DNA of 63,113 nt, filler included, from Stramenopiles sp. TOSAG23-6 (GCA_900128565.1; 8 parts of 8 records of this genome joined end to end with filler, not necessarily neighbours in it); one strand, 5' to 3'; shown: positions 3 to 63,021, counted from the first letter of the whole stretch. Notes: generated by a model not told the origin, from the sequence alone. Made by a program: numbers and translations.

Positions 3-104
3 GTATGTTTTATTTTTTTTCAATTTCGAGTTTTTTTTTCGTACGAAATTTTGTACCTAACAAATTTTTTAGAATTTTTTTTGAATTATTTTTCCAAAAT
101 ACAT
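3..104 (+). mobile_element. Introner-like element copy (upstream exon outside window)
   Basis: GTATGTTTT...TTCGTACGAAATTTTGTACCTAAC...CCAAAATACAT consensus. Confidence 0.8.
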
Positions 105-786
105 AGGTGGAAGTCCGCCACGCAACTAGAGCGAGATATAACACCTGGCCCTGGAGCATATACTCTAAAATCAACATTGAATAGCACTGGTGGATCTATG
201 GCTGGTAGAGTGCCTTCTGAAATTGATATCATCGTGAGAAATGCTAAAAAGACTCCTGTATGTTACACTTTGTGGCAAACAACACTAAAATTTGGTATCT
301 TAGATTTTAATTTTTATTTCATTTGTAACAGATTTGACATATTGTACTAAATATATGGACCCGGCCATTACAATGTAAATTTTTCATCACTTAAAAATAA
401 TTGCGGTAGAATCAGCGAATTTACAAGTTTAACCGATGTCGATTGGATGATGAAAAATGCTTCAAGTATACCTGGGTATGTTCTTTTTAGTAAGTACCTG
501 TACTATATCTTTTTATAGCCCTCTTTATTCATGAATACATATTATATTTTACATATTGCATATATAATAGACCCGGCCACTATGACGCGACACCTATAGG
601 CAAGTCGTTTAGCGCAAGCTTTGGAACATATGTACCCAAGCATTTTGTTGATATTGCTGTCGAAAGGGGAAAGGCAGTACCTGCTCCGGGTTATGCGCAA
701 AAGTTTATTGTGCCAAAGCGAAAAAAAAGACTATCAGAAATTCGGTCCGAGCTCTCTCTCGCCAAAATTATGGAGGACAGGATTAA
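105..786 (+). CDS. Sperm-tail PG-rich repeat (ODF3/STPG-like) protein, 3' part; exons 105-257, 357-475, 571-786
   Basis: Repeated (T/I)PGPG(A/H)Y motifs are rebuilt across introns 258-356 (GT-AT) and 476-570 (GT-AG); stop TAA 784-786. Confidence 0.75.
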
Positions 787-6533: not shown

Positions 6534-6630
6534 ATGTATTTTGGAAAAATATTTCAAAAAAATATTCGTTAGGTACAAAATTTCGTACGAAAAAAAATTT
6601 AGACAAAAAATTAAAAAAAATAAAACCTTC
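6534..6630 (-). mobile_element. Introner-like element, GA(?)-AT ends, joins kelch exon to CCT6 exon
   Basis: GAAGGTTTTATT...CGTACGAAATTTTGTACCTAAC...CCAAAATACAT. Confidence 0.75.
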
Positions 6631-7569
6631 ATGAATGTAAAGACTCAAATCGGCTGATCCAGCGACTGCAGCTGCGTGCCATGCACGTTTGGATGGTACA
6701 TCACCTAGTTCATTCCCTCCTCTAGTATCCGCATGTGTTTTAAATGACCATACTCTTGTTGTCAAATCCAATACTTGAACATCATTAAAGAAAATATCTT
6801 GAGCAAACATTCTATCCGGCCCTGCACCTCCAAATATAAGAAATCCATGACAATTTTTAACAGAGACAAAATTAGCCGTATGACCGCGACGTGCCGAAGG
6901 CGGCAAAAATGATGGAGGACCAACTTTAGTTTCAATAAAACGCCATTCTCTATCCATTACATTAAAGGCATAGAGATCTCCAAATATTTGACGTTTCGTT
7001 CCTGCTTTACCCGACTTATTGTATTCACCCTCACCTCCAAAAATCCATATTTCATTATTTGGCATTGATGTTAATGTATGTCCAGATCTAGGGGGTGGCA
7101 CATTATCTATCACATTAGATTTTTTCCACCCTTTATCAGGCACATCGACATCCATCATCCATAATTCATTTAATCGTCCACCATGAGACCCACCAATACC
7201 ACCAAATAAATACATCACATGACCAGCTATACCAAAAGCGAAACCTTCACGTATTTTCGGTGGTTGATGTTTGATTGATTGATACCTTGTCCATTTCTCA
7301 AGTGAATTTGGATCATTATTTACATTTTCTATTAATTGGTTCACTCCAGAGGATAGNNNNNNNNNNNNNNNNNNNNNNNNNNNNNNNNNNNNNNNNNNNN
7401 NNNNNNNNNNNNNNNNNNNNNNNNNNNNNNNNNNNNNNNNNNNNNNNNNNNNNNNNNNNNNNNNNNNNNNNNNNNNNNNNNNNNNNNNNTTTGCTTTAGC
7501 TATCTTCTCTATCTCATTAGAGCGGTAAATATTGTTTTTTGCCTCACCTTTCAAAAGTTTCCACGACAT
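6631..7569 (-). CDS. Kelch-repeat protein, N-terminal part (contains N gap)
   Basis: [38 protein letters not shown] repeats. Confidence 0.85.
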
Positions 7570-15734: not shown

Positions 15735-15883
15735 TGNNNNNNNNNNNNNNNNNNNNNNNNNNNNNNNNNNNNNNNNNNNNTTAATTAATTAANNNNNNNN
15801 NNNNNNNNNNNNNNNNNNNNNNNNNNNNNNNNNNNNAAAAAAAAAAAAAAAAAAATAGGGAAAAAATTTCCTATGAAAAAAAT

Positions 15884-15966: not shown

Positions 15967-18292
15967 AAATGTGCTTAAAAATGAATCACATAAATCTAAT
16001 GTTGTAGAGGATGATGAACACAATGATGTTAATAATTCAATGATTGTGCCAACAGTGCTACTTGGCCATTTATATGACAAGTCAATTGGATTATGAATGT
16101 GTTCCTATATTTGTAGAAAATATTTCAAAATTTAAAAAAATATTTTGTTAGGTACAAAATTTACTACGAAAAAAAAAATGAAAAAAAAATGAAAAAAAAA
16201 TTCCAAAATTTTTTTTAAACAAAAGATAAAAAAAGATAAAAAAAATATTCTTATTACAACACGTACCAACATTTTTGGTGTCATATGCCGGGGACACAAA
16301 ACTGTTTTCATAATTGAATATAAAATGTTTTGAACTCTTTCATCACTTTTTTCAATTTTTTCACTTTTTTCAATTTTTTCAATTTTTTCAATTTTTTCTT
16401 GATGTTGTCGACAAAATCGAACATGAATTATTTTTTCACGCCCATTACCGGGTATCAGCTGGTCAGGCACATTTTCTATAGTAAAACCTAGTAAAGATGC
16501 AATTTCTCTACTTATAGTAGGGTCATACGGTAATGTTTCAATAAGCATGTATTTTGGAAAAATATTTCAAAAAAAATCTAAAAAATTTCGTTAGGTACAA
16601 AATTTCGTACGAAAAAAAAAATTCGATTTTTTTGTAAAAAAAATAAAAAAATAAAAAAATAAAACATACATACTATCAAGACAATCAGCAACAGATAAAA
16701 TTTGTTCGGTAAAAATAAAAGGTTGAAATTGTTTTTTTTTTTTTTTTGAAATTTTTTTTTCTTCTTCTTTTGAAATTTTCGTTTTTTTTGGACTTTCTTG
16801 ATTAGGATTAGGGTTAGGGTTTTTTAATGCAGGTATGCATTTCATTACTAAATTCCACATCCCTACATAATCAATGACATTACTTGTATCAATAGCATGA
16901 TATCCATTACTTCCAGGTTGTTTTAAAGGAATTTCCATACAATGGTAAAAAAATATTTGAAAAAAAAATTCAGAATTTTTGTTAGGTACGAAATTTTTTT
17001 ACGAGATTTTTTTTACGAAAAAAAAAAAAAAAAAAAAAATGTAGGATAAAAAAATACATGCAATTACCAAATGTAAAAAAACAGCGTATTGTATTGTTTT
17101 TGACAGATTTTTGTAGACGAATAAATAATGGTGTCCAAACATTTTGAAGCGTTTTCGCAAATGAAGGTGAACCCACCATATTATCGATTGCATTGCTTGT
17201 ATTGGTTGTAGTAGAGTTAGGGTTAGGGTTAGGGTTAGGGTCGTCGAAAATTTCGTCACTAGTTAGTGATGCAAAAGCGCCAACAGGCCCTTGACATTCT
17301 AAATATATGGCATGCTGTTTGATCCCATCGATATCATCATTCGATATTTCAAAATTTTCAAAATTACATGTAGAAAGTATTGTGAAAAAATATTTCAAAA
17401 TTTACTATAAAAAAAAAATTTGTTAGGTATGAAATTTTTTTACGAAATTTTTTTACGAAAAAAAAAAATTTAAATTTGAAATTTAAATTTGAAATTCATA
17501 TAAAACGTACAACATCAAATAGAGTTGGGTTTATATACGTCACTGTAGTGTTTGTGAGGGAAGAGTCAACGGAGGAAACCCCATGTTTAAGCCAATCTAC
17601 AAGAAGATGTGATAAACGTCCATGACCTGCACTTTGGTCTGAGAGTCTTTTTGCACGTACATAAATTATGAAAAAATATTTCGAAAAAAAAAATCTAAAA
17701 AAAATTGTTAGGTACAAAATTTCGTACGAAAAAAAAAATCAAAAAAAAAAAATTCAAAATTGAAATGAAAACGAACTTGTAATAATTTTTTTGTGTTTGT
17801 TTGTACAGATTTCAAAGATAAAATCGTACGCCATGCAATCCAATGTTGTTTCATAGCACTTAATGTCTTTTTATCTGTTCGAATCCATGAAGGGATTTGT
17901 TCAATTAATTGACACAAGGTTTTAAAAAGTTGAGAAAAAGTTTCTTCATTGAGCAAGACATCACTCCAAATAGCTGTTGCATATTGTATACTCAACTCTC
18001 CTTCAGATGCCAAGGTGATCAGTACCACATTTCGTGCAAGGGCAATCGAATTTAAGTCATTGAAATGTAGTTCAACTCGTGCTTCTGATGGAATATTTAT
18101 CAAAGTGGTGAGAGGGTTTCGTATATCACCAACTCCAATCCAAAGCAATTTGATGGGTGTTGCGTTACATAAACTTTGTACTTCTTCTTTTGTTAGCAAG
18201 CTGCGAGCAAATGTATTTCCAATAAGAAAGCCACTCATCACACTATCGACAAGCTTACGTCGTGCAAGACTAAATGGTTTAGAGTACACCAT
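15967..18292 (-). CDS. DUF4470-like domain protein, multi-exon, 3'-incomplete; exons 18292-17777, 17660-17511, 17374-17058, 16936-16670, 16546-16267, 16104-15967
   Basis: LLWIGVGDIRN..LHFNDLNSIALARNVVL motif; all five complete element excisions keep the frame open. Confidence 0.7.
16105..16266 (-). mobile_element. Introner-like intron, GT-AG
   Basis: GTACGT...GTACCTAAC...CAAATATAG; phase-0 in-frame join. Confidence 0.75.
16547..16669 (-). mobile_element. Introner-like intron, GT-AT
   Basis: Full consensus; join reads CLDS-M-LIETLP. Confidence 0.85.
16937..17057 (-). mobile_element. Introner-like intron, GT-AT
   Basis: Core TACGAAA/GTACCTAAC; join reads FGNC-M-EIPLK. Confidence 0.75.
17375..17510 (-). 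mobile_element. Introner-like intron, GT-TT
   Basis: TT|GTACGT...CACAATACTT; join reads LFDV-STCNF. Confidence 0.75.
17661..17776 (-). mobile_element. Introner-like intron, GT-AT
   Basis: AA|GTTCGT...CATAATTTAT; join reads KLLQ-VRAKRL. Confidence 0.8.
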
Positions 18293-18561
18293 CACTCGAA
18301 ATAGCGTACTGTGGCAAGTACTCTAAAAGTAGTACTTAGTAGTAGTACTTTAAAAGTAGTAGTAAACGTCGTAGTAAACGCCAAGAAGACTTCAGAAGTT
18401 CAGAACTTTTTGGAGAACACCACGATAGTACCTGGTAACCTTGAATCTTAACTTCGCTGACTCTAAATTTTAGACACGTGTTCGTTGTGTTGTTGTTCTT
18501 TGCACGACTTGTTGTTGTTCGTCTTGTGATTGATTTTTCATACTAATCAAAACAATACAAT

Positions 18562-19282
18562 ATGGTACGTGACACTTCAACACATGTGGGAGGTTGTCAT
18601 CCATGATATTTGGATGACAACCTCCCACGTAGTTATATTTCGCTTTTATTTACTATCCCTATCCCACTTCGCCTTTCGTTAGTGTTACACGAACCCTAGT
18701 GTTACACTAACGTCATGGTTGAGACCGTTGTGCGATTGAACTTCCTTCGGGAAGCTTTCCTCATCGAGTATATGTGGCTAAATCATTTATTCACCATCAC
18801 AAACCCTTTATATATACCCAAATATACATGCTTTAATTGTAAAGGAAGGCGAGTTTCAGCACATTCTCCGTGTTATGAACACTAATCTTAACGGTAAGGA
18901 GAAAATCATGTATGCTCTGACAGCTATCAAAGGCATTGGTCGTCGTTTTTCCAACTTAATTCTTAAAAAAGCTGAGATTGACCTCAACAAACGTGCTGGT
19001 ATGATGTCTCAAGAAGAGATCGAAAAAATCGTAGCTATTATTGAAGATCCTCTTCGTTTTAAGATCCCAAAATGGTTCTTGAACAAACAGAAGGATCCTG
19101 TTACTGGTAAATGGACTCAACTACATGCTCAAGGTGTTGCTGGTGGTCTTCGTGAAGACATTGAACGTCTCAAGAAGATCCGCTCTCACCGTGGTCTCCG
19201 TCATTACTGGGGACTTACTGTTCGTGGTCAACATACAAAGACAACTGGGCGTAAGGGCAAATCTGTAGGAAAGAAAAACTAA
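18562..19282 (+). CDS. RPS18: 40S ribosomal protein S18 (uS13); exons 18562-18564 and 18830-19282
   Basis: [49 protein letters not shown]. Confidence 0.96.
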
Positions 19283-19565
19283 AGTAGCCTAACCCTAACC
19301 CTAACCCTAATGTCGAAATTAGTGAATTTGAAACATGTCAGGACTCGATTTTTTAATATTTTTGAGTTAATTATATAGCGTGAATTCAGTTCTATATCTT
19401 AGTTTGTTGATTGTCATAATCAAGTTAGAATTCTTAGAATTGTATTTAAAATATTGAATAAAAACCAGTATGAAAAAATATTTTGTAACCTTAACCCTAA
19501 GTACTATCGAATTGAAAAAAAAACACTTAAAATTGAATATACAATTTTATCTACTTAATTTTTTT

Positions 19566-22500
19566 TTACTCTTCAAAAGTTGTACATTGACTAAATTGAC
19601 TGATAAAAGAAATATGACTTAAATCACTCAAATGATCATTATGCAGTTGCTCATTTCTATCAATAAAACATGAAGTAATAAAATCTCTAATAATTTTGAT
19701 ACTCTTTAAAAGTTCAAATAATTCAGTGATTTCATTAGGGTTAGGGTTATTAGGGTTAGGGCTATTATTTCCATTATTTTCAATGCATTTTGAAGAATTC
19801 GTATTTAATTTCGTACCAATTTGTTGAAGAATTTCACCCCATAATTGTAGAACATACGAAATCTCAACTGAATGATCAAAAATTTCATCATTTGTTGTTG
19901 TACACGAATTATTTTGTGTTTTTTGTGTTTTTTTTGTTTTTTTTGTTTTTTGTGTATTTCGTGTTTTTTGTGTCTTTTGTTGTTTTTTGAATTGATTCAA
20001 TGCAGAGTTTGATGTTTTTTTAGAATCATTGGAATTATACTTCTTTTTATTAGGAGTTTTTATACGAATAGGAAGAGATTTTATATCCAAATTATTCTTT
20101 TGAAATATTGTACCATTAGGGTTAGGGTTAGGGTGTAATGAGTGATTTTCATTTTTTTCTAATGTTTGCCATTCCTTCTTAAAAACATCAGGATCTTGTT
20201 TTTGAAGTGAAATAATATCATCCTCAACTTGTCTATATTCTTTAATCAATCCATTGGATATTGAATTCCAATGAGATTGCATTTGACTCATTTGAAGTGA
20301 ACGATGACGAAATAATCTACTTTCATGTATTTGGGAAAAATATTTCAAAAAAAATTTTGAAAATTTGTTAGGTACAAAATTACGTACGAAAAAAAAATTC
20401 GATTTTTTTGTTAAAAAAAAAAATAAAACATACAGCAAGAATTTGTGAAATGATAATATTTCGTGCAACTTGCAAAGAATATTGACTTGACTCAGTTCCA
20501 TCTTTACTTTTCATACTAGTGTTTTGATATGATATTGAATTGTTAGGGTTGGGGTTAGGGCTATAATTTTTTTTTTTTCCATCATTTTTTGTATCATTTT
20601 TTAAATCATTTTTTGTATTATTTTTTGTATCATTTTTCAAATCATTTTTTAAATCATTTTTTAAATCTTTTGTTAATTCAGAAAATGAAAACTTGACATG
20701 AGGGAAACGACCTATATTTTGGAAAAATATTTCAAAAAAAAATCTAAAAAAAATTGTTAGGTACAAAATTTACTATAAAAACCAAAAACCAAAAACCAAA
20801 AAAAAAAAAATCGAATTTGAAAAAAAATTGAAAAAAAATAAAACAAACTTGTGAATTTTTTTTCCAAGACTATAGAGGACAAATAAGAAAAAAGCATATA
20901 CATTTTTTTTTCAATATCTATTTTTTGTTTTAATCCATTTTTCAAGAATACCAAATGCTTTGGGAGTATACCATCAGCTACTAATGTTTTTAAAGATTTT
21001 TGAGCGACGCGGTTGAAACTGCTAATTTGGAATTTATCTGTACATGTATTGTGAAAAATATTTTTTTTTTAATAAAATTTGTTAGGTACGAAATTTCGTA
21101 CGAAAAAAAAATAAATTCGAAATTGAAAAAAATAAAACGTACATGCAAGTGCCCCAAAATGTTGCCAACTTTTCATGATTACAAAAGAAGGGAGGATAAC
21201 AAATAAAATAGACACCATAATTGATTGAATGGCAATACTTCTTTGAATCCAAATAGCCTGGCGATCAGGTTTGCTACTATTTAAATGGTAGCCTAAAACA
21301 CAACTTTCTACTAATCCGGCAACTGTATTGTGAAAAATTAAAAAAAAAAAATATCGTTAGGTACAAAATTTCGTATGAAAAAAAAAATAGGTAAAAAAAT
21401 TCATGATGAAAACGAACCTGAACCACCTAAAATTAAGAAAAATGAAACATTATCAATAAATGGTTGTACCTTTTCTTGTGAAGCCATAACTTGAGGATCT
21501 GTGCCCAAACAAACTCCTAGAATGACAAATAAATGATGTAACCAAGCATCTAGAGGTAGTTCTGGAATACTCGCCAATTCCCAAATCATGACGGCCATAA
21601 TATTGTCACGGGCAAAAATCCAAGCCCGCATAGCAACTGCATCTGTGAGTGACATGCCAGCTTCTTCACATGTCATTGCAGTGTGTTTGTTTAAAAGGAC
21701 CATGTTGGATTTTTTTATATTAAATTTACCGAATAATCCACGTTCCAAGTCGACTTGAGGAGCTACTAAAAATGCGATTTGCACGAAACATGAAGCTCTG
21801 ACAATAATTTTCACACAGAAGCCTACTAATTTTCTTCGTTTTAGATGAGTAAATTTCCCCCACAAAGCACCAAATACAGAAGGAACAACAATGTCTTTGA
21901 GCAAAACACAAGAGATTAACACTTCCAGCAGGCAAAAAACGAACACTGTCTGTGTGGAGCCTCCAATACAACCTTGGAAGAGAAACACCTTTGTGAGGTC
22001 ACCAGTGTAAACATAACCCGGAAACAAAACGACAAACAATGGTTTCCAAATGAGCAACACTACAGCAATGGATGCTGGAATGGATTTATATATATTTTTT
22101 GATTTAAAAAATTTGTTAGGTACAAAATTTTCCATTTTCTTAGTAAAAACAATTTGGAAATCAAAATGAAAATGTACAGGATGGTGTCTTTGAAAGCACT
22201 TCCGAATTTCCTTGTTGTTTTACCTCCCCCAAATGATTATCTTTATCATCAATATGGCTATCATCTCGTTTACCGTCTATTTCAATATCATCAATATCTT
22301 GAATAGATTTATCTGCACGATTTTCATTCGTATCTTTAGGGTTAGGGTTAGGATTATCTGTACCTTCCTCGTTATTTTCCTGACTACTTCTATTATCTTC
22401 TTCATATTCACCATTTTTATTTGGCCGTAAATGAGCTTGAAATACTTCACCAGGACCAATGTTTTGTGAAAAAAATTGTTTTTTTTTAAATTGGTTAGAT

Positions 22501-23585
22501 GTGAAATTTTTTTATGGAAAAAAAATATACATTTGAAATTCATAATGAAAACGTATCGAAATAAAAACTCAAAAAAAAAAAAAAAATGTTAGGTACAAAA
22601 TTTCGTATTAAAAAAAAAATAAATTTGAAATTCATAATGAAAACGTACATGCCAGGGGGTACGGCAAGGGTATATCTCCGACCATCAGTCATGCTAATTA
22701 GTATATGTTGCCCTTTTTGCCAGTCTAAAGGTACAGGAACAGAAACAACCTCAGGTTCAGGCATGTGACTATGAAGTTCTGTTTGAAATGATTCTCCTGG
22801 ACCAATGTGTTTTGGAAAAATATTTGAAAAAAAAAACTAAAAATTGTTAGGTACAAAATTTCGTACGAAAACTAAAAAAAAAAAATTGGAATTAAAAAAA
22901 AAGTAAAACGTACATTCCTGGAGGAACAGCGAGAGTATATCTATGACCATCCGTCATGGTCACTAGGATATGTTGTCCTTCAAGCCAATCTTCAGGTACA
23001 AAAACAGACACTACTTGAGGTTCACCATTGCCTGAATCATCACTCATTGATTCACTCTGATCATATATTGTGGAAAAATATTTCAAAAAAAAAAAAAAAA
23101 ATTGTTAGGTATAAAATTTTCTACCAAAAAAACAAAATTTGAAATTCATCTATGAAAACGTACATCGACACATTCGTATCCACTCTCAGTACTGTTTGCA
23201 CCAAAGCGACTGCGTGCACCGCCTACATCGCTATGAGATCCTCCTCCACTGCTCCCGTTTCTAAAATCGGACACACTAGATTGGTCATCTCTACCAAAAC
23301 CTCTAAAATGCCAATTATTATTTCTTGGTTTCACATGATTCTCTTGAACTGTATTCGCCATTGTATCACATTCTTCATTTTCTTCAAAACGGACACCTTT
23401 ACCAAAACCAGCAGATGTACCACGCTTCAACTGCAAAGAATAGTCATCGCTATTTTGTGAATCATCACTACTATTATCATCACCAAAGGTTCCACTTCCA
23501 CGACGTACAGTAGTCACTATTGTTCCAGAATTTCCTGACGCTTCCGCATTTGTTTTATCATTACACAAATTTTCTTTCTGGCCAA
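19566..23585 (-). CDS. Multi-exon reading frame(s): two VPPGIGPG repeat domains, a multi-pass membrane segment and a low-complexity C-terminal region; possibly more than one gene
   Basis: Excising eight elements yields a continuous open frame; domain content changes abruptly at 21044-21142. Confidence 0.5.
20325..20433 (-). mobile_element. Introner-like intron, GT-AT
   Basis: CT|GTATGT...CCCAAATACAT; join reads SQILA-ESRLF. Confidence 0.82.
20712..20848 (-). mobile_element. Introner-like intron, GT-AG
   Basis: GTTTGT...CCAAAATATAG; in-frame phase 1. Confidence 0.8.
21044..21142 (-). mobile_element. Introner-like intron, GT-AT
   Basis: AT|GTACGT...CACAATACAT; in-frame phase 1. Confidence 0.8.
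21323..21417 (-). mobile_element. Introner-like intron, GT-AG
   Basis: AG|GTTCGT...CACAATACAG; join reads LGGS-V-AGLV. Confidence 0.82.
22090..22177 (-). mobile_element. Introner-like intron, degenerate, GT-AT
   Basis: GTACAT...TTTTGTACCTAAC...AAATATAT; in-frame phase 1. Confidence 0.65.
22459..22648 (-). mobile_element. Introner-like intron, compound (internal partial duplication), GT-AT
   Basis: Join reads VPPG-I-GPGEVFQ; two copies of ACGTTTTCATTATGAATTTCAAAT. Confidence 0.8.
22805..22913 (-). mobile_element. Introner-like intron, GT-AT
   Basis: Join reads VPPG-I-GPGESFQ. Confidence 0.85.
23063..23163 (-). mobile_element. Introner-like intron, GT-AT
   Basis: AT|GTACGT...CACAATATAT; join reads ECVD-DQSES. 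Confidence 0.8.
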
Positions 23586-23640: not shown

Positions 23641-24612
23641 NNNNNNNNNNNNNNNNNNNNNNNNNNNNNNNNNNNNNNNNNNNNTTAATTAATTAANNNN
23701 NNNNNNNNNNNNNNNNNNNNNNNNNNNNNNNNNNNNNNNNTCAATTGCAGATGACTAGTATAAATGCAATTGGTTGGGGTTTTCAGTGTTCTTTACGTAC
23801 GAACAAATGGATGAATTCGAGTTAGATTATCGGTAGATTTGATTAAAATATATCGAGTTAGTATGTATATTCAGAATTGAGTAATGAATGTACAGAGAAA
23901 TGGAGAGTGTACGGGATGTTGGTATGTAGTATATTCTATGTCAGGTGGCCTTACTGATAAGTGTTATACGACAATTCAAGTAGAGAAAATAGAGAGAGCA
24001 GTATTTAACTTTGAGAAACTAAGTAAATAGTGAAGTGATTTTATTGTAAGATAGAAATAAAGCTGTTATAAACCTTGTCACGTGATATTAATAGCAAAGT
24101 AGAACATTCTGCTCCATTCAATGAATGTAGTTGTATATATTCTATACAGAACTTTGTTGTGTTTAGTGTCGAGGTGTAGTAGCAAACTTTACAAGTATAA
24201 TAGTAGTTGTTGTTAGTGTTGGCCGTTAAGAATGTTAACCGTTTTCGGCACTTTTTCTTAATCGAGTGTAGTCTCAGACAAACACGAAATCTTGGAACTC
24301 GTAAATAAAGTGAACCATTTTGAAGTGGTTCACATTTTTGTAAGCACGAAATCTTGGAAATCTGAGCTACGCCAAATGTTTTTTGTGGAACTAACCTGTT
24401 TTGATGAGAAAGCAAAAAAAGAATTTCTTTTTTTTTTGAATTTGAATTTGAAATTTTTCCCTATTTCAAACTTTTCTCCAAACACTCTAGACGCAGGCGA
24501 ATATTATCTACGAGATAATCCTGGGAAAGATATATTTCTACTAAAAGGACATAGTAATATTAAAAGTATCAAATCACGAAGCTCATCTATTGAATAAGAG
24601 ACTCTACATAGA

Positions 24613-30629: not shown

Positions 30630-30731
30630 ATGTATTTTGGAAAAATATTTGAAAAAAAAAAACTCAAATTTGTTAGGTACAAAATTTCGTACGAAAAAAA
30701 AAATTCGAATTTGAAAAAAAATAAAACATAC
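30630..30731 (-). mobile_element. Introner-like element, GT-AT
   Basis: Full consensus. Confidence 0.8.
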
Positions 30732-30799: not shown

Positions 30800-30907
30800 T
30801 ATATATTGTGAAAAAATATTTTTTTTCCGGAAAAAAAATTAAATCGTTAGGTCCTATGAAATTATTTTGATAATAAAATAAATTCGAAATAAATAATGAA
30901 AAAATAC
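30800..30907 (-). mobile_element. Introner-like element, degenerate; 3' boundary approximate
   Basis: GTATTT...GACCTAAC...TTTTTCACAATATAT. Confidence 0.6.
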
Positions 30908-31003: not shown

Positions 31004-31101
31004 ATGTATTCTGGAAAAATATTTCAAAAAAAAAAACTAAAAATCGTTAGGTACAAAATTTCGTACGAAAAACAAATCGAATTTGAAAAAATAAAACAAA
31101 C
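31004..31101 (-). mobile_element. Introner-like element, GT-AT, flanking exons out of phase
   Basis: AT|GTTTGT...CCAGAATACAT. Confidence 0.8.
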
Positions 31102-31542: not shown

Positions 31543-31701
31543 NNNNNNNNNNNNNNNNNNNNNNNNNNNNNNNNNNNNNNNNNNNNTTAATTAATTAANN
31601 NNNNNNNNNNNNNNNNNNNNNNNNNNNNNNNNNNNNNNNNNNCGTTAGGTACGAAATTTCGTATGAAAAAAAATTAAATTAGAAATTCATATGAAACGTA
31701 C

Positions 31702-33299
31702 ATCATTTACAGATGTTTTAATTCCCTGTAGCTGTGGTGCCCTATATCGAATTTCTCCCGTAAGACTATGCTTGTAATAATAAAATCCAGTATACGGCGA
31801 ATATAATTTTTCCCATATGGAAAGCAAAAGATTCCGCATGTATTTTAGAANAATATTTCAAAAAAATCATTAGGTACAAATTTCCGTACGAAAAAAAAAT
31901 CGAATTTGAAAAAAAATAAAACATACATATTACGTCGAACAAGTTTTCTTCTATACATTCCTTGTAGTTTAGAAATGGAAACAAACTCTCGCTCTTCTTC
32001 TGTCATATCTTCCCATTTAGGTTTTGTTACTTTACTTTCATTCATCTCATTTTCACCCTTTTCGTTTTCATCATTTTCATTTTCATCATTTTCACTATCT
32101 TCATCTATTATAGGTTTACCCAGATAATTGTAACGAATACCATCATATCCACCCACAGGTGCGTAAATTGTAACATCATTACCAAAGTCATCATATTCAT
32201 TTTCTTCGTTCAGAGCGAGTTTAGAAAATCGCTTTTCAATTTTTTCTAACTCAATTGAACGTAGACGTTTTTCATTGTTGTGTACTACTTCGTCCTTTAA
32301 TAACTTCGGTTTATCCCATTGTGCTTCACCAGTTTCATGATTTTGGTAATAATATGCTTGGTGCCATTCGTCCCATTCCTTGGAAAATATTTTATTTAGC
32401 ATTGCTTTGAACATCTTTCTTCCTCTTCTAGCTCTATACAATGTTTGGATTCTAGATGCAGCAGCATCAATTCCAGGTGTACCTAATAACTCTTCTAACT
32501 TTGCAGCAGCTGCTCTAGCTTCTTCCAGTTGTCTACGTCTTGAGGATTCTTCTCGACGACGCTTTCTTTTCTGCTGTCTTTCCCATTTTTTATTTTGCAT
32601 TGTAGTAAATGAATCGATTCTACCCATTCGCGCTTCTCGTTCTGCATGCGAAAACTCAAAATGATACATAGCATCTGATGCGCACTGTTGTGTGATTATA
32701 TTCGATGACATTGCCGCATATGCGGCTCTTGCAGCACGCATTGCAGCCTCCGCCTTTTGCTTTGCAACTTTTTTTTTACGGAATTCTGCAAGTCGTTCTT
32801 TCCTTGCCGCTTTTGCTCTCTTCTTTGCCTCTAATTGTTCTGGCCTCACATTATTTAATTTCCTGAGCATTGCTATTTCAGCATCACTCCAAATAACATT
32901 CCTCTTCCTCTTAGCCATAGTGTTACAAGAAGAGGGTAGGCAGTCGATTTGTAACATTCTTTGCAAACGTCTTTTTTTTTTTTCTCGATTCAAGTTTTCA
33001 CGTTCAATTCCTTGTTCTATAGATTTTTGTTGAGAAGAAAATTGATTTGCCTCATGTGGATTATTCGATGAAAGCATATTGCTACAAGGAGCAAGAGCCA
33101 AACATGGATCTGGATTTGGTGTTTCACCATTATTTTGCTCAGAAGAACCACTACGCCATTGTAGTGTGAGCTTCCGCCTTCGAATCACTGGAATTTTTAT
33201 TTCTTTTAGGAGTTCAATGAATTCCGTTTGTGACATTTGAAGAATTTCCTCAATGTCGCACGAATACTCTTTGGCAATATCATTAAGCGTATACTCCAT
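31702..33299 (-). CDS. IQ-motif/WW-domain repeat protein, 3'-incomplete; exons 33299-31927, 31837-31702
   Basis: IQTLYRARRGR + YYYQNHETGEAQWDKP; second unit LQGMYRRKLVRR..FYYYKHSLTGEIRYRAP rebuilt by splicing. Confidence 0.8.
31838..31926 (-). mobile_element. Introner-like intron, GT-AT
   Basis: 89 nt; excision restores the IQ-WW unit; no AG between branch motif and end. Confidence 0.88.
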
Positions 33300-42321: not shown

Positions 42322-45300
42322 TCACGATAAATTTGTAATAGCATTATTGTGACTACTTATTTGCATGTTACGCCATATTTCGTATTCGGCAAAATTATTT
42401 TCCGCTTCATTTCGTGTAAAAATTCCATTTATTCTACGACTGCTCATATGGTATCCGATGATGGCATGACGAACTTTTCTGTGGAAAGTATGCCTCTCAA
42501 GTGAAATTGCGTACCCCATTTGTGCACGAGCTTTCCTCTCTTTTGGATGGCTCAACCACCATTGTAGTATATTAAGAATTTCTTCGTCGGTGTCCTCCTC
42601 TGAAAGTTCAACTACGAAAAGTTGTAATTCGTCCCGTTCATACTTTGGTGCTGAAATAGGTATATTCCCCACAATGAGACTGCCTGCCAGGGCAGCTTCC
42701 CAGTACTTGGCTAAAGTATAGCTATATTTACTGCTAGTTACAAATATATGCTGTGAAAAATATGTAACAAAAATAAATTATTGCGTAAGAAACCTTCAGA
42801 TTTTAGTTGCAAAAATAAATAAATTTGACCAAATAATTGACCAAATAAATTTGAAATTCATAATGAAAACATACACAATCTTGGCACGATGAAGTCTTGT
42901 AAGAAACCCTTTGTATTGCTGCTCCATTTTAGCTTCTGTAATTCCTCGTTTTTCACACATTTGTACTGATGAACATAACCTATCCGTGTAACCTGGGTGA
43001 TTCAAAAGTGCAACTTGTGTATTCTTGTTATTCCAAGGTTGCTGAGCAATATTTATTATAGTAAATGAACCAGGAATGTCTTTGTCGTCCAGAAAGATTT
43101 TACTTTGTTCTGGGTTAAACTTTGGTCTTGGAATCTTACTAAAAGTGCCTTTAAATGCTAATCTACCCAACCGAACGCGAAGTGGGTAATGTTTTTCATG
43201 CATAAAACCAGTGAGGAATAAGTCTATATCTCGTTGATTCATAACATCACATGTCTTTGGGTTAGGGTTATGTTTTTGCTGTGTTACTGTAGAATTCAAA
43301 TGTTTCGTATGACATTGATTTTTATCAATGCGATTTTGTTTTTTTATATCCTTTGCGATATCATCAAATAATGTAGGCATTACAGCATGGCCAGAATGGA
43401 TGAGAATCTTGCCAGGTTGACGTGAATCCTTCCTATTCATATTAATATTATTAATATATTGGAATATAGAGTTTACTCGCATTTCGTGTTCATATGCAAA
43501 TAAAAAAACGTCACTTTCTTCAACACACTGTTTGCAAACACTTGAATGGCATTCATGCTCCCATCTAACGTTTATAGGTGGCGGAAAACCTAATTTTTTA
43601 TTCATCTGTTGAATTTCTAAAACTTCAGAGGAAAAATTGTAACGCTCTACACCAATTTCACCACACTGTCCAAATATCCACAGCATATCGATTGGTTTAA
43701 TCGATTTAATATCTATTGATTCTTTTGTATTATTAAGTAAAGATATTTCATTATTCTCTTTTCGAACTTCAACATGAAGATACGGACAGTTCTGTGCAGC
43801 TTTCAGTAAATATATTTTGTCGAAATATTTCATAATTTTTTTTTGTTGGGTATAAAATTTACTATAAAACAAAACTAAACTTTAAATTCAATTTTGAAAA
43901 CGTACATGTATAAAATCTCTGTGCATAAACTTTGACTTGTCAACATCAGAAATCAGAAATACAACGGAAATTTGCCGTCTTTGAGTATTTATATTTGAAT
44001 CAATATCACTTGTAATACTATTCATATCTAAACCTTGTGTCCCATTCATAAAATACTCTTTGTTGCCTGTCCATGAATTTGATCGTAATATTTCTAGTTT
44101 TCTCTCTTGTGTGTCTTTTTGAGTAGTAGGGTTAGGGTTAGGGTCTTTTTGAGTAGTAGACGAAGGAGATTCACGAGGTGGAAATTCTGTACCAAATTTT
44201 GCCCCGAATGAATTTCGATTTTTGTTTTTATGAAGATTGGATAACATCCAAACATGGCGTTCAAACAAAAATGTTGCAATTTTTACGTGACTTGTACGTT
44301 GCCATGTGTCATATAGGATTGTATTCTCCTTTGTAAACGTATAATTACCATGTTGTGGTCTTAAAGTAGGCAATTTATTCAATAATGTCTTATTCAATAT
44401 AGTTGAGTGAGTTTTCTCCATCCAAGCAGCAACAATATACGGTCCAGGTGATAAAGTTGGCTTTGTTATAGTTGTGTTATTTGATGTATAATTAAATGTT
44501 TTAAAGAATGGAAGTTTGTAGGAATATAAGAAAATATCTTCTGAACTACCAGTTTGTTTTAATTGTCTCGAAACTTTTTCAAAAACAAATGGATTTGTTT
44601 CATTAATGGGAGGACTAAAAGATACCTCATTTGTGGATAGATTATGGCATTGAATAATCACCGAAGATTTCACCAGATCATTTTCTCTTTCTTGTGTACT
44701 TTTTGTAATATTCTTAATATCCTCATAATTTTTACATGGTGGAGATATATGTTGGGAAAATATTTCATAATTTGAAATTTATTAGGTACAAATTTTAATA
44801 CAAAAAAAAATCAAATTTAAATTTAAAATTCATACTGAAAACGTACACGAACATTTCACAAATTCATCATTAAAACAACATTGAGAAGTATACCTCAATT
44901 CACTTCCATCACATAACGGATTCAATATGTTTCCCTGAAATTTTGAATTAATTGTACTAGATTTATTGTCATTACTATTAATGTATTTTAGAAAAATATT
45001 TCAAAAAAAAATCCTTAGGTACAAAATTTCGTATGAAAAAAAAATTGAATTTGAAAAAAAAATAAAACATACATGGTATTCAATCCATTTCGAAGTTCAT
45101 TTGCAATTGTACGGGATATTTCATCTGTCGTTTGTTGAATATTTTGGTCAATATTAATTTCATCTGTCGTTTGTTGAATATTTTGGTCAAGATTAATTTC
45201 ATCTGTCGTTTGTTGAATATTTTGGTCAATATTTTCTGATTTTTGGTTGACTATTTTTTCCTTTCGGTGGGCACAGCATCGATCACGATATCCATCATTA

Positions 45301-47198
45301 CTACTAAAAGTAAAGGGATAGGATGTGAAATATATATATATATGTATATATTCGTAAAAAAAAAAAAATCGTTGTACAAAATTTTCTATAAAAACACAAT
45401 ATAAGGTAAAACAGTAGGTAGTGATAAATATTTTTGAAGAAATTTGTTAGGTAAAAAATTTCGTATGAAAAAAAAAATTCGAAAAAAATATAAACGTACA
45501 TGAGTTGGAGGGCACATTCCCCGTATTCTTTGTTTGCCTTGTCGTCTTCTCCAGTTCCATAAAAATGTTTTATATTTTTCATTATTGTTATTGACGTCAT
45601 CACGTTGAATTGAAAAGCACAATCTTTTATCGTTAAGTTTGTATTTTTCTGGACAATCTATACAAATTGGTACAGATATCGCAACATTTAATGGAAGCGA
45701 AACATGTATTTTGGAAAAATATTTCAAAAAAAAATCGTTAGGTACAACATTTCGTACGAAAAAAAATAAATTCGAAATTGAAAAAATAAAACAAACATGT
45801 CCCCGATGATATTGATTACCTATTTTTGGATCAATTAATTGTATTTCATAATCTTCATAATATGTTTCAACAAATTTAGTATTCGCTTGAGCTTTATCTG
45901 TTTGATTAGGGTTTGATGTTTTTGTCTCTGAAGGAGGAAGCAAAATTGTTGATGAAATCGGACAATTTTTTGTAATCAACACCGCAAAAATTGAATCATT
46001 TGAGTAAATGTGAGGAATTTGGCGTTTAATAGAACTCTGCCATTCATATAATGAAAAATATGCAACAACGATAACTCGTTACCTTATAGAATTGTTTTGG
46101 AAAAACAATAAATTTAAACAATAAATTTGAATAATAAATTTGAACAATAAATTTAAACAATAAATTTGAACATAAATTTAAACACTTCATCCTCAAAAAA
46201 AAAAATATTAGGTACAAAATTTGGTACAAAAACAAATTGAAATTCATGATGAAAACGTACAAATGTACCATATAACTACGATGTATTTTTTCATTAAGTG
46301 TAATCCAATGTCGATCAATTTCGTTTGATGTTTTTGTACTCATTATCAATTTATTAAAGATATCAGATTCTGCTTCAAAAAGATCCCAAGTTCTATGCCA
46401 CGGCACAGGGTAAAATATATAGGGTTCTGCAATATTTACTTTTTTTTTATGTAGGGAATTTGGCACGGAATCATTAGTAGACTTTGAGAAATCTTCCCAT
46501 ACACGCTGCAATAATTTTGGTCCATTGTGTCCCCATAGATAACTAGAAAATTCAGACACAAAGCGGCATAGAGCTATCGCAATGAATGGATGCTCAGGTT
46601 CCCACATGGAGAGCACTGCATTATTGAGTTGATTTGGATCTTCCTCTCCCACAGTATTTTTCGGAATAGTTGAAAAATCTTTTTTAACAATCAAATCTGT
46701 GTCAAGATAAGTACCACCATATCGATATATCAAAGCTAACCGTAAAGCATCTGCCTTGTGGTGATATCCAAATCCGTTATCCCACTTTGCTTCGAAATAC
46801 CAATCCCTTAGATTAGTCCAGGGTTTGTTATTACAGTCACTTTTACAGTTGGATAATTGAGATGAAAAATAAAACTCATCCGCATAGTTAAATCGAACGA
46901 CAATTATATTGGTTGCCAATGTTTGCAAAACTCCTGCTGACCAAGTATTGGAATAAACAAAGACATTTCTATTGGGATTTTTACTGGTTGCGCTTTCAAT
47001 GGCGCATAGAGCAATACCATCAGGGGTATATTCTTCACTTGTATGTACAAAAAAGATATCCGATCCAAGCCTCGGTAATGGCGCTGTATTTTTTCCTTGA
47101 ACAAGTATTTGGAACAATAAGAAGCATAATCCAAGTAGTATACCAGTACGGCGTAATGTCATTCCTTTGCTAGAAAAATAGGCGGAAATGCAACGCAT
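42322..47198 (-). CDS. Multi-exon glycosyltransferase: N-terminal GT32 (DXD, A4GALT-like) domain and C-terminal GT-B-like domain, seven element introns
   Basis: CAIESA, ADALRLALIYRYGGTYLDTD, WGHNGP; C-terminal KIV|FVTSSKYSYTLAKYWEAALAGSLIVGNIP. Confidence 0.7.
42746..42874 (-). mobile_element. Introner-like intron, degenerate, GT-AT
   Basis: Join reads AKI-V-FVTSSKY; nearby CAG gives an immediate stop. Confidence 0.75.
43810..43905 (-). mobile_element. Introner-like intron, GT-AT
   Basis: Join reads RDFIH-LLKAAQ. Confidence 0.8.
44745..44846 (-). mobile_element. Introner-like intron, GT-AT
   Basis: Join reads VKCS-S-PPCK. Confidence 0.75.
44981..45072 (-). mobile_element. Introner-like intron, GT-AT
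   Basis: Full consensus; join reads GLNT-I-NSND. Confidence 0.82.
45118..45233 (-). repeat. 39-bp coding tandem repeat x3 (NIDQNIQQTTDEI)
   Basis: ATTTCATCTGTCGTTTGTTGAATATTTTGGTCAA repeated three times. Confidence 0.9.
45330..45499 (-). mobile_element. Introner-like intron, compound; 3' boundary approximate within (AT)n
   Basis: AT|GTACGT.. with two core-like segments. Confidence 0.6.
45704..45796 (-). mobile_element. Introner-like intron, GT-AT, 93 nt without in-frame stop
   Basis: Join reads HRGH-VSLPL. Confidence 0.82.
46050..46260 (-). mobile_element. Introner-like intron with internal short tandem repeats; 3' boundary uncertain
   Basis: TT|GTACGT...GTACCTAAT; downstream exon SIFAVLITKNCP completes the GT32 domain. 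Confidence 0.6.
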
Positions 47199-59400: not shown

Positions 59401-61069
59401 TTACTTACTTGTATTCATCAAACTTTCCCATCTTTTCCAGTATTGATTTGATTTTTCAATTGTGAGTAAAGTTGAGTAAATTGATAATTTCAGGTGAGAA
59501 AATTTCTCCAAAATTTTCACTTTTGATTCTGTTTTTCTACAATTTTGTATTTTATCCTTTACAAATGAAATTAACCATAAAATATAGTTGAGAGCTTCAA
59601 ATCTACTACACTCATTTTCTTTAGTGTTCGGCGATTGCACAACACATTTTAAAGAGACAAATCTTATTTCTCTTTCAAAAAATGTACAAAATTCATGCTC
59701 AAATATCAGAGGAGTAGAACTTGTTGGTCCATTCAAAATCGAATCTGTACCAAATTTCGTACCTAACGAATTTCGATTTTTCTGAGTGTAACAAAAAGTC
59801 CCAAATTGTACATTGCTAAATGAAGCATATATTGATGTACATGATGAATTATTTTCAAAAGTCATGTTATTTTTTGAAAAAAAAAGAAGTATAGTATTCA
59901 CTAAACTACGTCTATAATGCCAAAGTGACTCATTACCTGGGAACCTGTCCATTAATGTATCTAATACGTCATTCTGATCAACTATAATAGAATGCATGTA
60001 TTTTGGAAAAATATTTTTTTTTAGTAAACGTTTTTGTTAGGTACAAAATTTCGTACGAAAAATAAATAAATTTAAAATTGATCCTGAAAACATACATTTC
60101 TTTAGGAGATATATTTGTGTCAGAAAGAAATCCAAATAAAATGGACACATAATGCCAACCAGAAAAATCAGATATATGTAATCTAAGCCAAGTATTCATA
60201 TTTCTGACTTCTTTTTTTAATACTTGAATTAATTGAGAATCGATTTTTTTTCGTTGTTTTTCATCAGTTGAGAGTGATATTTTTTGTGTATAATTTCCTA
60301 CTATTTTTTTCATAATTATACACCGATGAGTCCAAGCATAGTAATTGCGCTTATAACCATACGAACTATGACTTTCTACTGACCGCTCACAAATTACAAA
60401 TTCCGCAAGGTATAATTTCTCATGCCAACGGAATTGTTCAATTGGTGAATTTGTAGATTTAGTATATACTTGATATGCTTTGTCTAATAATTTAGGGTGG
60501 CATAATAACCATCGTCTATTTTTCCATGTTTCTTCACTTTTAGGATGATGACGAAGCACAATATCGTTGAAATGCAACTCATCCATAAAAGCATCTTTTG
60601 GAGAATATTTTTGGGCTGTACTACATTTAGTTTCGTTTCCATCGAAAATACAACTCTTTTCAATCAAAATACACTTTCTTGCATTCCATGCGGCAGCACA
60701 ATCGCCGTTAATAAGCAATAAAACTCTTGTGCTGCACTCTAAGCTGATAACATCACGTTTTTTTGTTGTGTTTTTTACGCTTTTTCCAGCCTTTTCTATA
60801 CTCACTGATTTCCAATGCTTTCGCTTATAAACAAAATCTTTCCACGCACTCTCATAAATCCACGGGGTACACCATAAAGCAATTCCAATCTTATGTTCTA
60901 CATAAGTAAAAGCCTGGTTAGCACCGGGTATAAAGCCAATCTCATCAATAAGAGGGTCTTTATGAAGGAAAGCACAAAAGCGTTCATAGAAATCATCATC
61001 AATGGATGCTAAGTTTTGACGGCGAATGCGCTTACCTTCCTTTCCTCGACATCTTGATACACCATGCAT
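59401..61069 (-). CDS. PTAR1: Protein prenyltransferase alpha-subunit repeat protein; exons 61069-60096, 59995-59401
   Basis: IDEIGFI, AAWNARK, PKSEETWKNRRW, NYYAWTHR, HISDFSGWHY, FPGNESLWHYRR. Confidence 0.85.
59996..60095 (-). mobile_element. Introner-like intron, GT-AT
   Basis: 100 nt; join reads SPKE-M-HSIIV; the two next downstream AGs give stops. Confidence 0.88.
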
Positions 61070-61381: not shown

Positions 61382-63021
61382 ATGGTTGATGCTCGTCAAC
61401 ATAGAAATGTTGTGGCAACAGAATCTTCAGAAAATGCTCCAATGCCTGCCATCGTTGTGCGAGTGGCACAATCTTCTAAGTCTTTGTTGCTTCGACAGTT
61501 TGAATCTATTGTAAGCGACTCTGGTGAATGGACACATACGTGCATACACTGTAATAAAGTTATCTCTAATGCGAAACTTCTAATTCAAGCGCGTGCAATT
61601 GCACATGTTAAAATATGTGTGTCAATCAGTGATGATTTGAAGACGCAATGTAATGCAAATTTAAAGAGAAATGTTAAAGCTTTAAATGGTGTAGTTAGGT
61701 CACAATTTAGAACAGAAGCTACAGGTAACACCTTTACTCATACGTGTATTCACTGCTTAAGAGTCGTTTCGAGAGCTTTACATTTCAATACAACGCGCGC
61801 ACTTGAACATATTTCTACATGTACAATAGCATCAGATCAAGTTAAAACTGATTGCGCTGCCACCTCTCAGAAAGCAAAACGGAAGAAAATGAATGCGTTA
61901 GGAGAAATGTATGTTTTATTTTTTTTCAAATTTGAGTTTTTTTCGTACGAAATTTTATACCTAACGATTTTTTTTTGAAATATTTTTCCAAAATACATAC
62001 GGAAAGGAAAACAGATTATCAGACAGAGAGTAAGAAATAGTACCGGTAATTTGCACACTGTTTCACATCATAATCCAAAAACAGTTCTTTGTTATGGCGA
62101 CTCGAACACCTGGGGGTATGATTCTGTAACTGGGTCTCGTTTTGCGTTGCATATGCAAGTTTTCAAAATTGAATTTAAATTTTTTTTTTTTTTTCAAACT
62201 TTTTAGTACCTAACAATTTTTTTCTACAATATTAAAGTATTTTTTCACTATGCATCCGTTGGCCTGGAGTTGTACAAACCATGCTTGGCACAAATATCAG
62301 AATTGTTGAATGTGGCTTAAGTGGTCGCACAACAGTAATGGACGATCATGCATGTGGATATGTATGTTTTATTTTTTTTTTTACAAAAAAATCGAATTTA
62401 TTTTGTTTTCGTACGAAATTTTGTACCTAACAAATTTTGGAATTTTTTTTGAAATATTTTTCCAAAATACATCTTGCTTCTAATGCAGACCCTAGTTGGT
62501 GCAACGGCAGAAAAGTATTAGGACCGACTCTTCATACTACAAAACCTATAGATCTCGTCATATTATTTCTTGGTACAAATGACCTTCAAACAAAATACAG
62601 AAAGACCGCGGCTGATGTACGTTTTATTTTCTTTTTAAACAAAAAAAACAAAAAAATCGATTTTTTTTTTTATAAAAATTTTGTACCTAACAAAATTTTT
62701 TAAAATTTTTTTGAAATATTTTTTCATAATCTATATTGCGTATAGTTGTGGGATTCTAATTGATGACATTGTCACAAGTTCAGTTTGCGCTCAAGGAAAT
62801 CCAACTGGTCCGTCTATGTATCCAGACTATCGCACAAAAAGAAATAAATTTCGTGGAACTAATCCTGTCCCACCTTCGATCATCTTGGTCTGCCCGGCGT
62901 CCTGTACCAATGAAAATTTTAGAGGATTTGAAGGTACACTTGAAAAATCAAAAAATCTTGGAAAAGAATACAAAAAAGTAGTTGCGGAAAAATCATTGTT
63001 ATGGAAGAAATATGGTCTCAT
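61382..63021 (+). CDS. SGNH/GDSL hydrolase with two N-terminal BED-like zinc fingers, 3'-incomplete; exons 61382-61908, 61999-62154, 62256-62361, 62473-62616, 62735-63021
   Basis: CYGDSNTWGYD..H-I-RWPGV..GLSGRTT..LFLGTND..AAD-IAYS assembled only after excision. Confidence 0.85.
61909..61998 (+). mobile_element. Introner-like intron, GT-AT
   Basis: Full consensus, in-frame phase 2. Confidence 0.85.
62155..62255 (+). mobile_element. Introner-like intron, GC-AT
   Basis: AT|GCAAGT...GTACCTAAC...CACTATGCAT; join reads RFALH-I-RWPG. Confidence 0.85.
62362..62472 (+). mobile_element. Introner-like intron, GT-AT
   Basis: Full consensus; join reads ACGY-LASN. Confidence 0.88.
62617..62734 (+). mobile_element. 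Introner-like intron, GT-AT
   Basis: Join reads TAAD-IAYSCG. Confidence 0.85.

Follow-up and report, generated by a model that had tools for sequence, protein, structure and literature searches.

A 63,113-base stretch of the draft eukaryotic assembly of Stramenopiles sp. TOSAG23-6 (GCA_900128565.1), which we refer to as the window and which has a G+C content of ~34%, carries a family of short repeated elements that lie inside genes and whose removal restores the reading frames that they interrupt. We consider it likely that this is a high-copy family of mobile introns ("introners") that is spliced GT...AT, with AT as a regular acceptor (3' splice site), and that was inserted preferentially at exonic AT. 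AT is a regular acceptor of this organism, used by family and nonfamily introns alike, as RNA contigs and protein homology indicate, and the acceptor is not AG at four junctions checked by RNA or homology. In the mechanism that we propose, each copy would bring its own 5' splice site (GTAYGTTTT), a branch-like TACCTAAC ~43 nucleotides (nt) from the 3' end and a conserved 3' block, TTTCCAAAATAC. The transcript would be cut at the GT and, judging from frames and homology, after the dinucleotide behind ..AATAY, and removal of the element as GT...AT (in a few cases as GT...AG) would restore the reading frame without leaving a scar. The element would insert preferentially at exonic AT in the context c-AT-g; here we infer both the mobility of the family and its mechanism of insertion. 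All element copies reported below were counted within the window only, and a copy is called complete when both of its borders are fixed (n = 28).

Sense-oriented elements whose removal restores reading frames

Read on the gene strand, the element begins with GTAYGTTTT(A/C) and continues through a variable A/T-rich part, (TTTCGTACGAAATTTTG)TACCTAAC(A/G)A, a run of T and GAAATATTTTTCCAAAATAC to two final bases, the conserved block TTTCCAAAATAC plus 2 nt forming its 3' end. Complete copies are 89 to 190 nt long (median, 102.5 nt), and pairwise identity between copies has a median of 73% and a range of 59 to 95%, with recognizable subfamilies. The 10-base core TACCTAACAA has 38 matches in the window at no more than 1 mismatch, compared with 6.0 expected, and an nhmmer search of the window with a family profile built from 21 copies found 35 places at E ≤ 1e-5. 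All 28 complete copies lie within genes and run in the sense direction of the interrupted reading frames. Their host genes are unrelated, encoding an esterase, a prenyltransferase repeat protein, glycosyltransferases, a DUF4470 protein and others, such that the complete copies, together with the partial ones, display what is expected of introners, namely, many similar introns at nonhomologous positions.

For the tally of border bases, the family was pooled with three other introns (n = 31). The first bases were G in 30/31, T in 29/31 and A in 25/31, and position +5 was G in 27/31; in the 25 introns ending in AT, positions -5 to -3 before the AT were T in 21, A in 21 and C in 16 or T in 9. An earlier reading of this DNA, made from the sequence alone (the sequence-only reading), had given the ends as GTA(T)...(A)TAC, and the tally agrees with that description. 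The branch-like TACCTAAC is also well conserved, at a median of 43 nt from the 3' end.

In the frame test, each copy was cut out as GT..TAC plus 0, 1 or 2 bases, with the remaining copies removed at +2. Cutting at +2 gave the longest open frame across the junction in 26 of the 28 complete copies, the two others being e54 (3..104, plus strand), whose upstream exon lies outside the window so that the test is uninformative, and e31053 (31004..31101, minus strand), which fits +0; both have AT at the exon end and AT at the intron end (written AT/AT below). In an earlier run of the test, +2 was favored at 22 of the 24 junctions that were informative (null, 1/3; p = 4e-9), and after removal the frames are open for up to ~3.1 kb across eight copies. 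Introners are further expected to restore the coding frame when they are removed, and this was found both in the 26 of 28 frames and in the contiguity of the e62207 junction with a solved protein structure (4tx1_A, described below). The sequence-only reading had proposed that these repeated introns are removed without a scar, which is what excision of GT..TAC plus 2 nt achieves. For 16 of the 24 copies with an AT or TT ending, splicing at the first AG downstream would break the frame, showing that a canonical AG fails for most copies.

Protein homology bears on two of these junctions directly. In an SGNH esterase gene, the junction at e62207 (62155..62255, plus strand; AT/AT, with a 5' GC) was compared with the solved esterase 4tx1_A: the upstream exon aligns without gaps up to residue 37 (query residue 50 of 51), the downstream exon starts at residue 40, and an H plus the junction I fill residues 38-39 exactly. 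The esterase exon at 62735-63019 had no relevant match among solved structures, and as a result the junction at e62684 (62617..62734, plus strand; AT/AT, flanks and frame) lacks support from contiguity. The second case is e6575 (6534..6632, minus strand), which is an assembly chimera with its join inside the repeat, having a Kelch-repeat gene (6630-7356) upstream and, downstream, a match to Cpn60_TCP1 profile positions 195-489 of 490, corresponding to the last two thirds of CCT zeta. Its 3' half precedes the CCT-zeta exon, which, after the element's ..AAAATACAT, is homologous to solved CCT zeta from the second residue on, and no AG lies between the TACCTAAC motif and the terminal AT. This chimeric copy was excluded from every flank count. 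From the frames and the homology, we infer that each family copy is spliced at the RNA level.

Four public sequencing runs, comprising DNA and RNA libraries, were aligned to the window. The window was matched in small public DNA runs of one coded organism, and parts of it are found in seawater metagenomes and metatranscriptomes; the contigs of a seawater DNA run cover the unique exons and differ from the window at few positions, which indicates that the host organism is marine. Independent contigs from the seawater DNA also hold the element in place, one of them (21378-21930) crossing the 5' end of e21363 and another (22087-22558) entering e22122 and e22595. These data bear on the suggestion that the elements are not RNA introns at all and are instead DNA segments cut out in the manner of ciliate internal eliminated sequences, insertions in dead genes or assembly artifacts. 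The elements are indeed short, AT-rich and bounded by a 2-bp repeat within coding sequence, unspliced copies occur in RNA-library contigs, and the assembly is chimeric at one copy. However, eliminated segments of the ciliate kind have no strand bias and no splice signals, whereas every complete copy here (28/28) is in the sense direction and has splice-site and branch-like motifs; furthermore, an independent DNA run carries the element in place, and the frames are open for kilobases once the copies are removed. We therefore regard this explanation as highly improbable.

RNA contigs that end at 21143, 21418 and 22649, the 5' borders of three copies, were considered as proof of splicing and rejected, as repeats are skipped in the alignments and reads are seemingly cut there. 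Contig joints at elements mostly link different copies and are also present in the DNA run.

Most copies are of the AT/AT type. On the minus strand, those placed by flanks and frame are e16597 (16547..16669), e16988 (16937..17057), e21088 (21044..21142), e23111 (23063..23163), e30679 (30630..30731), e43852 (43810..43905) and e45744 (45704..45796), and e31927 (31838..31926) and e45073 (44981..45072) were placed by a profile match in addition to flanks and frame; e61958 (61909..61998) and e62424 (62362..62472), again placed by flanks and frame, are on the plus strand. The host of e60043 (59996..60095, minus strand; AT/AT) is a prenyltransferase alpha-repeat gene. Two further AT/AT copies, e22595 (22459..22648, minus strand) and e22853 (22805..22913, minus strand), occupy paralogous positions: the tandem exons 22640-22759 and 22905-23024 are 78% alike, and each is then followed by a family intron at the same position, implying that the exon duplication came after the insertion. 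The two copies thus probably represent one insertion and not two. The 190 nt of e22595 form a head-to-tail tandem dimer of the element, the units being joined where ..ATAC meets GTTTTC.

Summed contig depth in the seawater DNA run was ~4,000 to 33,000 over element bins, with bins of high depth at 16368-16626, 20253-20770 and 21030-21547, versus ~4 to 11 over unique exons; the depth figure is not itself a copy number, and it suggests that the element is present at very high copy number in the seawater community. Within the window, runs of N surround the spacer TTAATTAATTAA and mark joins between contigs (7824-7923, 15737-15836, 23641-23740, 31543-31642, 39439-39538, 47332-47431 and 55224-55323). 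These joins are mostly bordered by partial element copies, several of which abut the N linkers, indicating that the repeat breaks the assembly. At the join 55224-55323, a SPAG6-like armadillo protein is encoded upstream and a different open reading frame (ORF) lies downstream, i.e., the two sides carry unrelated genes.

AT acceptors outside the family

The intron of RPS18 (18565..18829, plus strand) does not belong to the family, there being no nhmmer match between it and the family profile at E ≤ 1. With slashes marking the splice borders, it reads ATG/GTACGTG...ATATACAT/GCT, so that the start codon (18562-18564) is followed at once by GTACGTG, the exon ends in TG and the acceptor is AT. Three RNA contigs from two runs begin their alignment at 18830 with 16 to 24 unaligned letters before that point, the sole loose end shown finishing in ATG, and a DNA contig is continuous through 18450-18873. 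The spliced N terminus agrees with the proteins of relatives, which begin MALVV, and the RNA contigs do not start at the in-frame AG 15 nt downstream. Because the exon ends in TG, only the GT...AT register fits. Inside this intron, a perfect 16-bp hairpin with a 7-nt loop is visible by eye at 18588-18626, to which no Rfam family matches.

Searches with the RPS18 relative P0001 as the query gave a best locus that was 68% identical among the 80 loci kept, and no close relative was found. Among transcript-derived proteins of the same organism, there was none for RPS18, the best matches being one at 87% and a 113-amino-acid public model; for the esterase exon, a public model was the sole match.

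A second nonfamily intron with an AT acceptor lies in a gene encoding a PG-rich repeat. A brute-force scan for further introns gave mostly noise and pointed to 258-356 and 476-570, both on the plus strand. The first (258..356) reads CT/GTATGTTA...ACTAAATATAT/GGA (its end also written AAATATAT/), has AT as its acceptor and restores ..KTP/GPGHY when spliced; the repeat profile matches from T13 upstream (profile positions 1-30) and the next exon matches from profile position 3, with weak E-values (0.0041 and 0.059). The second (476..570) reads GG/GTATGTTC...ATAATAG/A, has a canonical AG and restores IPG/PGHY. The presence of an AT intron beside a GT-AG intron in the same gene shows that the organism uses both AT and AG. 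The ending ..AAATAYAT is common to family and nonfamily introns. In a Pfam analysis of 34 single exons, matches were too few or too weak for the placement of junctions, with the exception of the PG-rich repeat.

U12-type introns have the 5' site [AG]TATCCTT and a branch site 10 to 15 nt from the 3' end. Copies of the AT/AT type yield the same mRNA in all three registers, and they could accordingly be read as AT...AC introns (/ATGTA...TAC/AT) or as U12-type GT-AT introns in which distance from a nearby branch site determines the 3' site, a reading to which the loose resemblance of the 5' GTATGTTTT and the 3' TTCCAAAAT to U12-type motifs lends something. However, the RPS18 junction ATG/GCT allows the GT...AT register only, and copies with the exon ends CT, AA and GT have no AT with which such an intron could start. 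Moreover, +5 is G, not C, in 27/31 pooled introns, and TACCTAAC lies at a median of 43 nt, not 10 to 15 nt, from the 3' end. Scans of the window for Rfam families and tRNAs were negative, also for small nuclear RNAs. We consider both the AT...AC register and a minor-spliceosome origin very unlikely.

Several observations weigh against the interpretation that the family consists of mobile introns spliced at AT. The sample is 63 kb, and no copy was found in any other collection: a 21-base core had no matches in metagenome, genome and viral contig collections, and a 16-base core had 28 viral matches, the element tail being present in none of the 28. The core motif also had no matches in part of a supplement to Gozashti et al. 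2022, the remainder of which may still include the family. The assembly is of draft quality, contains linkers and is chimerically joined within at least one element copy. At e31053, the frames fit removal without the extra 2 nt (441/285 nt open at +0 versus 158/283 nt at +2), and this copy could be a GT-AC intron, contain an indel error or be another assembly chimera. In 8 of the 24 non-AG copies, an in-frame AG lies 6 to 60 nt downstream, and there frame alone leaves canonical splicing possible. No RNA contig from the aligned runs shows a family copy spliced, and an RNA-library contig (22655-22839) enters e22853 by 33 nt unspliced, with the qualification that RNA libraries of this kind can contain DNA. 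Finally, the two nonfamily introns with AT acceptors could be ancient copies of the element that have decayed.

Flanking dinucleotides: duplication or preferred site

The two bases at the end of the exon are identical to the last two bases of the intron in 20 of the 28 complete copies, comprising 18 AT/AT, 1 TT/TT and 1 AG/AG. In the TT/TT copy, e17429 (17375..17510, minus strand), the exon ends in ..TT, the element runs GTACG...AATAC and TT follows; removal at +2 leaves 696/1038 nt open on the two sides. The AG/AG copy, e21363 (21323..21417, minus strand), is a canonical GT-AG member of the family in which ..AG is followed by GTTCG...AATAC and a second AG. The sequence-only reading had reported matching dinucleotides in most copies and had singled out these two loci; its coordinates were right and the generalization holds over the window, yet within the range that it covered only 3 of 6 copies match.

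The flanks differ in the other 8 of 28 copies, all of which are on the minus strand: e16154 (16105..16266; TG/AG) and e44788 (44745..44846; GT/AT), both placed by flanks and frame; e17714 (17661..17776; AA/AT), where the next downstream AG is out of frame; e20374 (20325..20433; CT/AT), with 756/2373 nt open and the next AG again out of frame; e20763 (20712..20848; AA/AG), whose AG is in the same register as the AT of other copies; e22122 (22075..22177; CT/AG), which is divergent in its 3' part and scores 20 bits; e30907 (30803..30907; AA/AT), divergent at 17 bits; and e42875 (42746..42874; GT/AT), divergent at 7.6 bits. The mismatched types are therefore GT/AT and AA/AT (two each) and CT/AT, AA/AG, TG/AG and CT/AG (one each). 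Overall, the acceptor is AT in 23, AG in 4 and TT in 1 of the 28 copies, the variants being nearly all canonical AG in the same register as AT, and position -2 is A in 27 of 28; acceptors vary less than exon ends do.

The exonic side is AT in 18 of 28 copies, whereas AT makes up a fraction of 0.094 of all dinucleotides in the window (p = 2e-12), which bears out the earlier claim of a preference for exonic AT. One way of accounting for the flanks is that GTA...TAC is a nonautonomous cut-and-paste DNA transposon with short inverted ends that duplicates 2 bp, usually AT, upon insertion and whose second copy of the duplicated bases then serves as the acceptor, whatever it is. Besides the 20 of 28 identical flanks, this would explain why matches exceed those expected when the pairing is shuffled (20 observed versus 15.0 expected, p = 1e-4) and why TT/TT and AG/AG are specific to their loci. 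An excess of matches after exclusion of AT, which the sequence-only reading had named as the test of its proposal, amounts to 2 of 10 copies versus 0.5 expected (p = 0.044) and rests on those two copies. All five non-AT acceptors occur in copies with a non-AT exon end (Fisher p = 0.0026; p = 0.029 among the 16 lower-scoring copies). In addition, the site restored by removal, c-AT-g, forms a palindrome centered on AT (C at -3 in 11/27, p = 0.004; G at +1 in 12/28, p = 0.002), and passages of Gozashti et al. 2022 (PMC9860276) describe introners that take a splice site from the duplication.

Other observations weigh against this account. The flanks of 8 of 28 copies differ, and the acceptor is not free: it is AT or AG in 27 of 28 copies, the exon ends GT, GT, AA, AA and CT still pair with AT, and the two nonfamily introns use AT after TG and CT. 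The 28 copies thus do not support the earlier claim that the acceptor is whatever was duplicated. Copies that are mismatched or non-AT are more diverged (median, 36 versus 53 bits), such that age alone could couple decay on the two sides. The symmetry around AT is as a duplication would predict but is also ordinary splice-site context, C at -3 and G at +1 being common there. As for the GT-TT intron that had been proposed at 17375-17510, the TT/TT flanks are real, but an in-frame AG 60 nt downstream offers a canonical alternative. The inverted ends (GTAT/ATAC) measure 4 nt, and inclusion of the flanking AT brings them to 6 nt; they are not the terminal inverted repeats of about 10 bp or more that characterize cut-and-paste transposons. 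Hence, of the earlier description of a terminal-inverted-repeat transposon with a 2-bp target-site duplication, the repeated family stands and the inverted repeat falls far short. The 28 long ORFs scanned, out of 60 listed for the window, yielded no domain of a transposase, integrase or reverse transcriptase; a transposase-bearing partner with the same ends, for which the sequence-only reading had suggested a search, did not appear among them. We conclude that a 2-bp target duplication is plausible but unproven, with the balance tilted somewhat against it, and we likewise hold the transposon account as a whole to be possible while leaning to the other side. A 3-bp duplication was also considered and rejected, since exon -3 equals intron -3 in about 8/27 copies, compared with about 10 expected.

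Alternatively, the element GTA...TACAT might carry its own AT acceptor and insert after an exonic AT without any duplication, either as DNA or by reverse splicing and copying back. The 3' block, including the AT, is the best-conserved part of the element, A at -2 being present in 27 of 28 copies, and because the ending A-Y-A-T is shared by family and nonfamily introns (..AAATAYAT), this block behaves as a splicing signal and not as target sequence. The occurrence of all 28 complete copies in genes and in the sense direction, with five of them keeping AT despite another exon end, fits this account too, and as passages of Gozashti et al. 2022 (PMC9860276) note, when a flank is common to all copies, a duplication is indistinguishable from a preferred site. 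On the other hand, the TT/TT and AG/AG copies would have to have changed in parallel at both borders, acceptors other than AT go together with exon ends other than AT, and antisense fragments of the element within exons would be unexpected under reverse splicing.

Such fragments exist. Pieces of the middle part of the element (~45 to 50 nt) lie antisense inside two unrelated coding exons (59724-59801 and 44165-44247), and other element fragments are in the opposite orientation at two contig ends. These are as expected for a DNA insertion, which explains them more easily than reverse splicing does. We judge an element-borne AT inserted without duplication to be somewhat unlikely. The two antisense fragments are translated in frame as similar peptides, ..KNRNSLGTKFGTD.. 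and ..KNRNSFGAKFGTE.., and short inverted AAAATCGAA/TTCGATTTT motifs flank the fragment at 59724-59801.

Under a broader scenario for this lineage of marine, heterotrophic stramenopiles, the major spliceosome would set the 3' site by position after ..CCAAAATAY and not by AG, with AT normal and TT usable, and an element making 2-bp duplications would have spread to thousands of scarless introns in which the acceptor, being the duplicated bases, was later tuned to AT or AG. Taken as a whole, we think this scenario unlikely.

Known systems, gene models and other features

Introners of Micromonas and Aureococcus were reportedly treated by Huff et al. in 2016, and the noncanonical introns of Fritillaria borealis are said to have been treated by Henriet et al. 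in 2019. Within the TOSAG23-6 window, the family is an introner variant in which GT-AT borders are nearly uniform, the candidate duplication measures 2 bp and the inverted ends are very short; it shares its principle with known introners. According to passages of Gozashti et al. 2022 (PMC9860276) and 2025 (PMC12130899), introners occur in Micromonas, Aureococcus and many other protists, have GY-AG borders and 3- to 9-bp duplications and in some cases borrow a splice site from the duplication. As far as those passages go, the present family resembles the introners of Micromonas and Aureococcus in comprising many near-identical short introns at unrelated positions, with a bias for genes and unchanged mRNA length, and differs from them in its usual AT acceptor, a candidate duplication of 2 bp and inverted ends of 4 to 6 nt.

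The introners of Amoebophrya, as set out in parts of Farhat et al. 2021 (PMC7789003), have direct repeats of 3 to 5 nt, inverted repeats of 8 to 20 nt and highly varied borders, with no detectable U1. Judged by those parts, both systems have repeated introns with non-GT/AG borders, those of Amoebophrya having short direct repeats that overlap the borders and inverted repeats at the ends. In contrast to direct repeats of 3 to 5 nt combined with hairpin-forming inverted repeats of 8 to 20 nt, the repeats here measure 2 nt and 4 to 6 nt, and this family is further set apart, on the same portions of the source, by a strong GTAYGT, near-uniform GT-AT borders and weak predicted folding. In the predicted RNA folds of six copies, the ends pair at energies near those of shuffled sequences (z = -0.7 to -2.2), a terminal AUGUAU/AUACAU helix being predicted in AT/AT copies. 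The idea that the exonic AT pairs with the acceptor AT was tried and rejected, as it fits 21 of 28 copies and so does no better than identity (20 of 28).

In Fritillaria borealis, passages of a recent study (PMC13326754) state that the major spliceosome routinely processes non-AG acceptors, AU included, that fewer than 10% of introns are GT/AG, that border types are many and that U2AF subunits are duplicated, and they discuss introner transposons as a source. Routine use of a non-AG acceptor is common to that system, as there portrayed, and to ours, whereas Fritillaria is an animal and here we have a protist with a canonical GT and mostly a single non-AG acceptor. GT-AT borders are, in the relevant part of a study of Physarum (10.1101/2020.10.12.336362), a recognized minor class of the U12 type; compared with what is given there, neither the 5' site nor the position of the branch site fits in our case. 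Our literature search found no paper on GT-AT introns or introners in marine stramenopiles (MAST) or other heterotrophic stramenopiles, and the single-cell genome papers, in the portions consulted, mention introns only in methods or as genome fractions.

Bursts of intron gain are at present best explained by introners, and published surveys of introners take annotated GY-AG introns as their starting point. Pipelines of this kind would overlook a family that makes GT-AT introns. Should the major spliceosome of this organism routinely accept AT, the organism would offer a natural system in which to study how the choice of 3' splice site loosens, and an origin of the acceptor from a target duplication would bear on how a transposon becomes an intron at the moment of insertion. 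Routine use of AT would also mean that the gene catalogues for this group, which is abundant in the sea, contain systematic errors at all introns of this kind. At two of the loci discussed here (18830-19279 and 62000-62734), the matching public gene models miss the introns and avoid AT acceptors. P0038, at the RPS18 locus, starts at an internal Met and drops 11 residues of a conserved exon. P0121, at the esterase locus, begins inside one element, loses conserved residues to forced GT-AG borders at two others and reads on into a fourth as far as a stop codon. Over the aligned parts, both models are identical to the proteins encoded in the window.

Telomere-like (TTAGGG)2-4 runs are also frequent in the window, with 28 found at no more than 1 mismatch, compared with 0.17 expected; they include those at 16802-16819, 17217-17240, 19287-19310, 19735-19761, 20116-20133, 20543-20560, 22336-22353 and 44126-44143. 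Many fall within open frames; there the gene strand has CCCTAA, which is translated as PNPNPN. The C-rich strand was the sense strand in the cases looked at, and one run lies just after the RPS18 stop codon.

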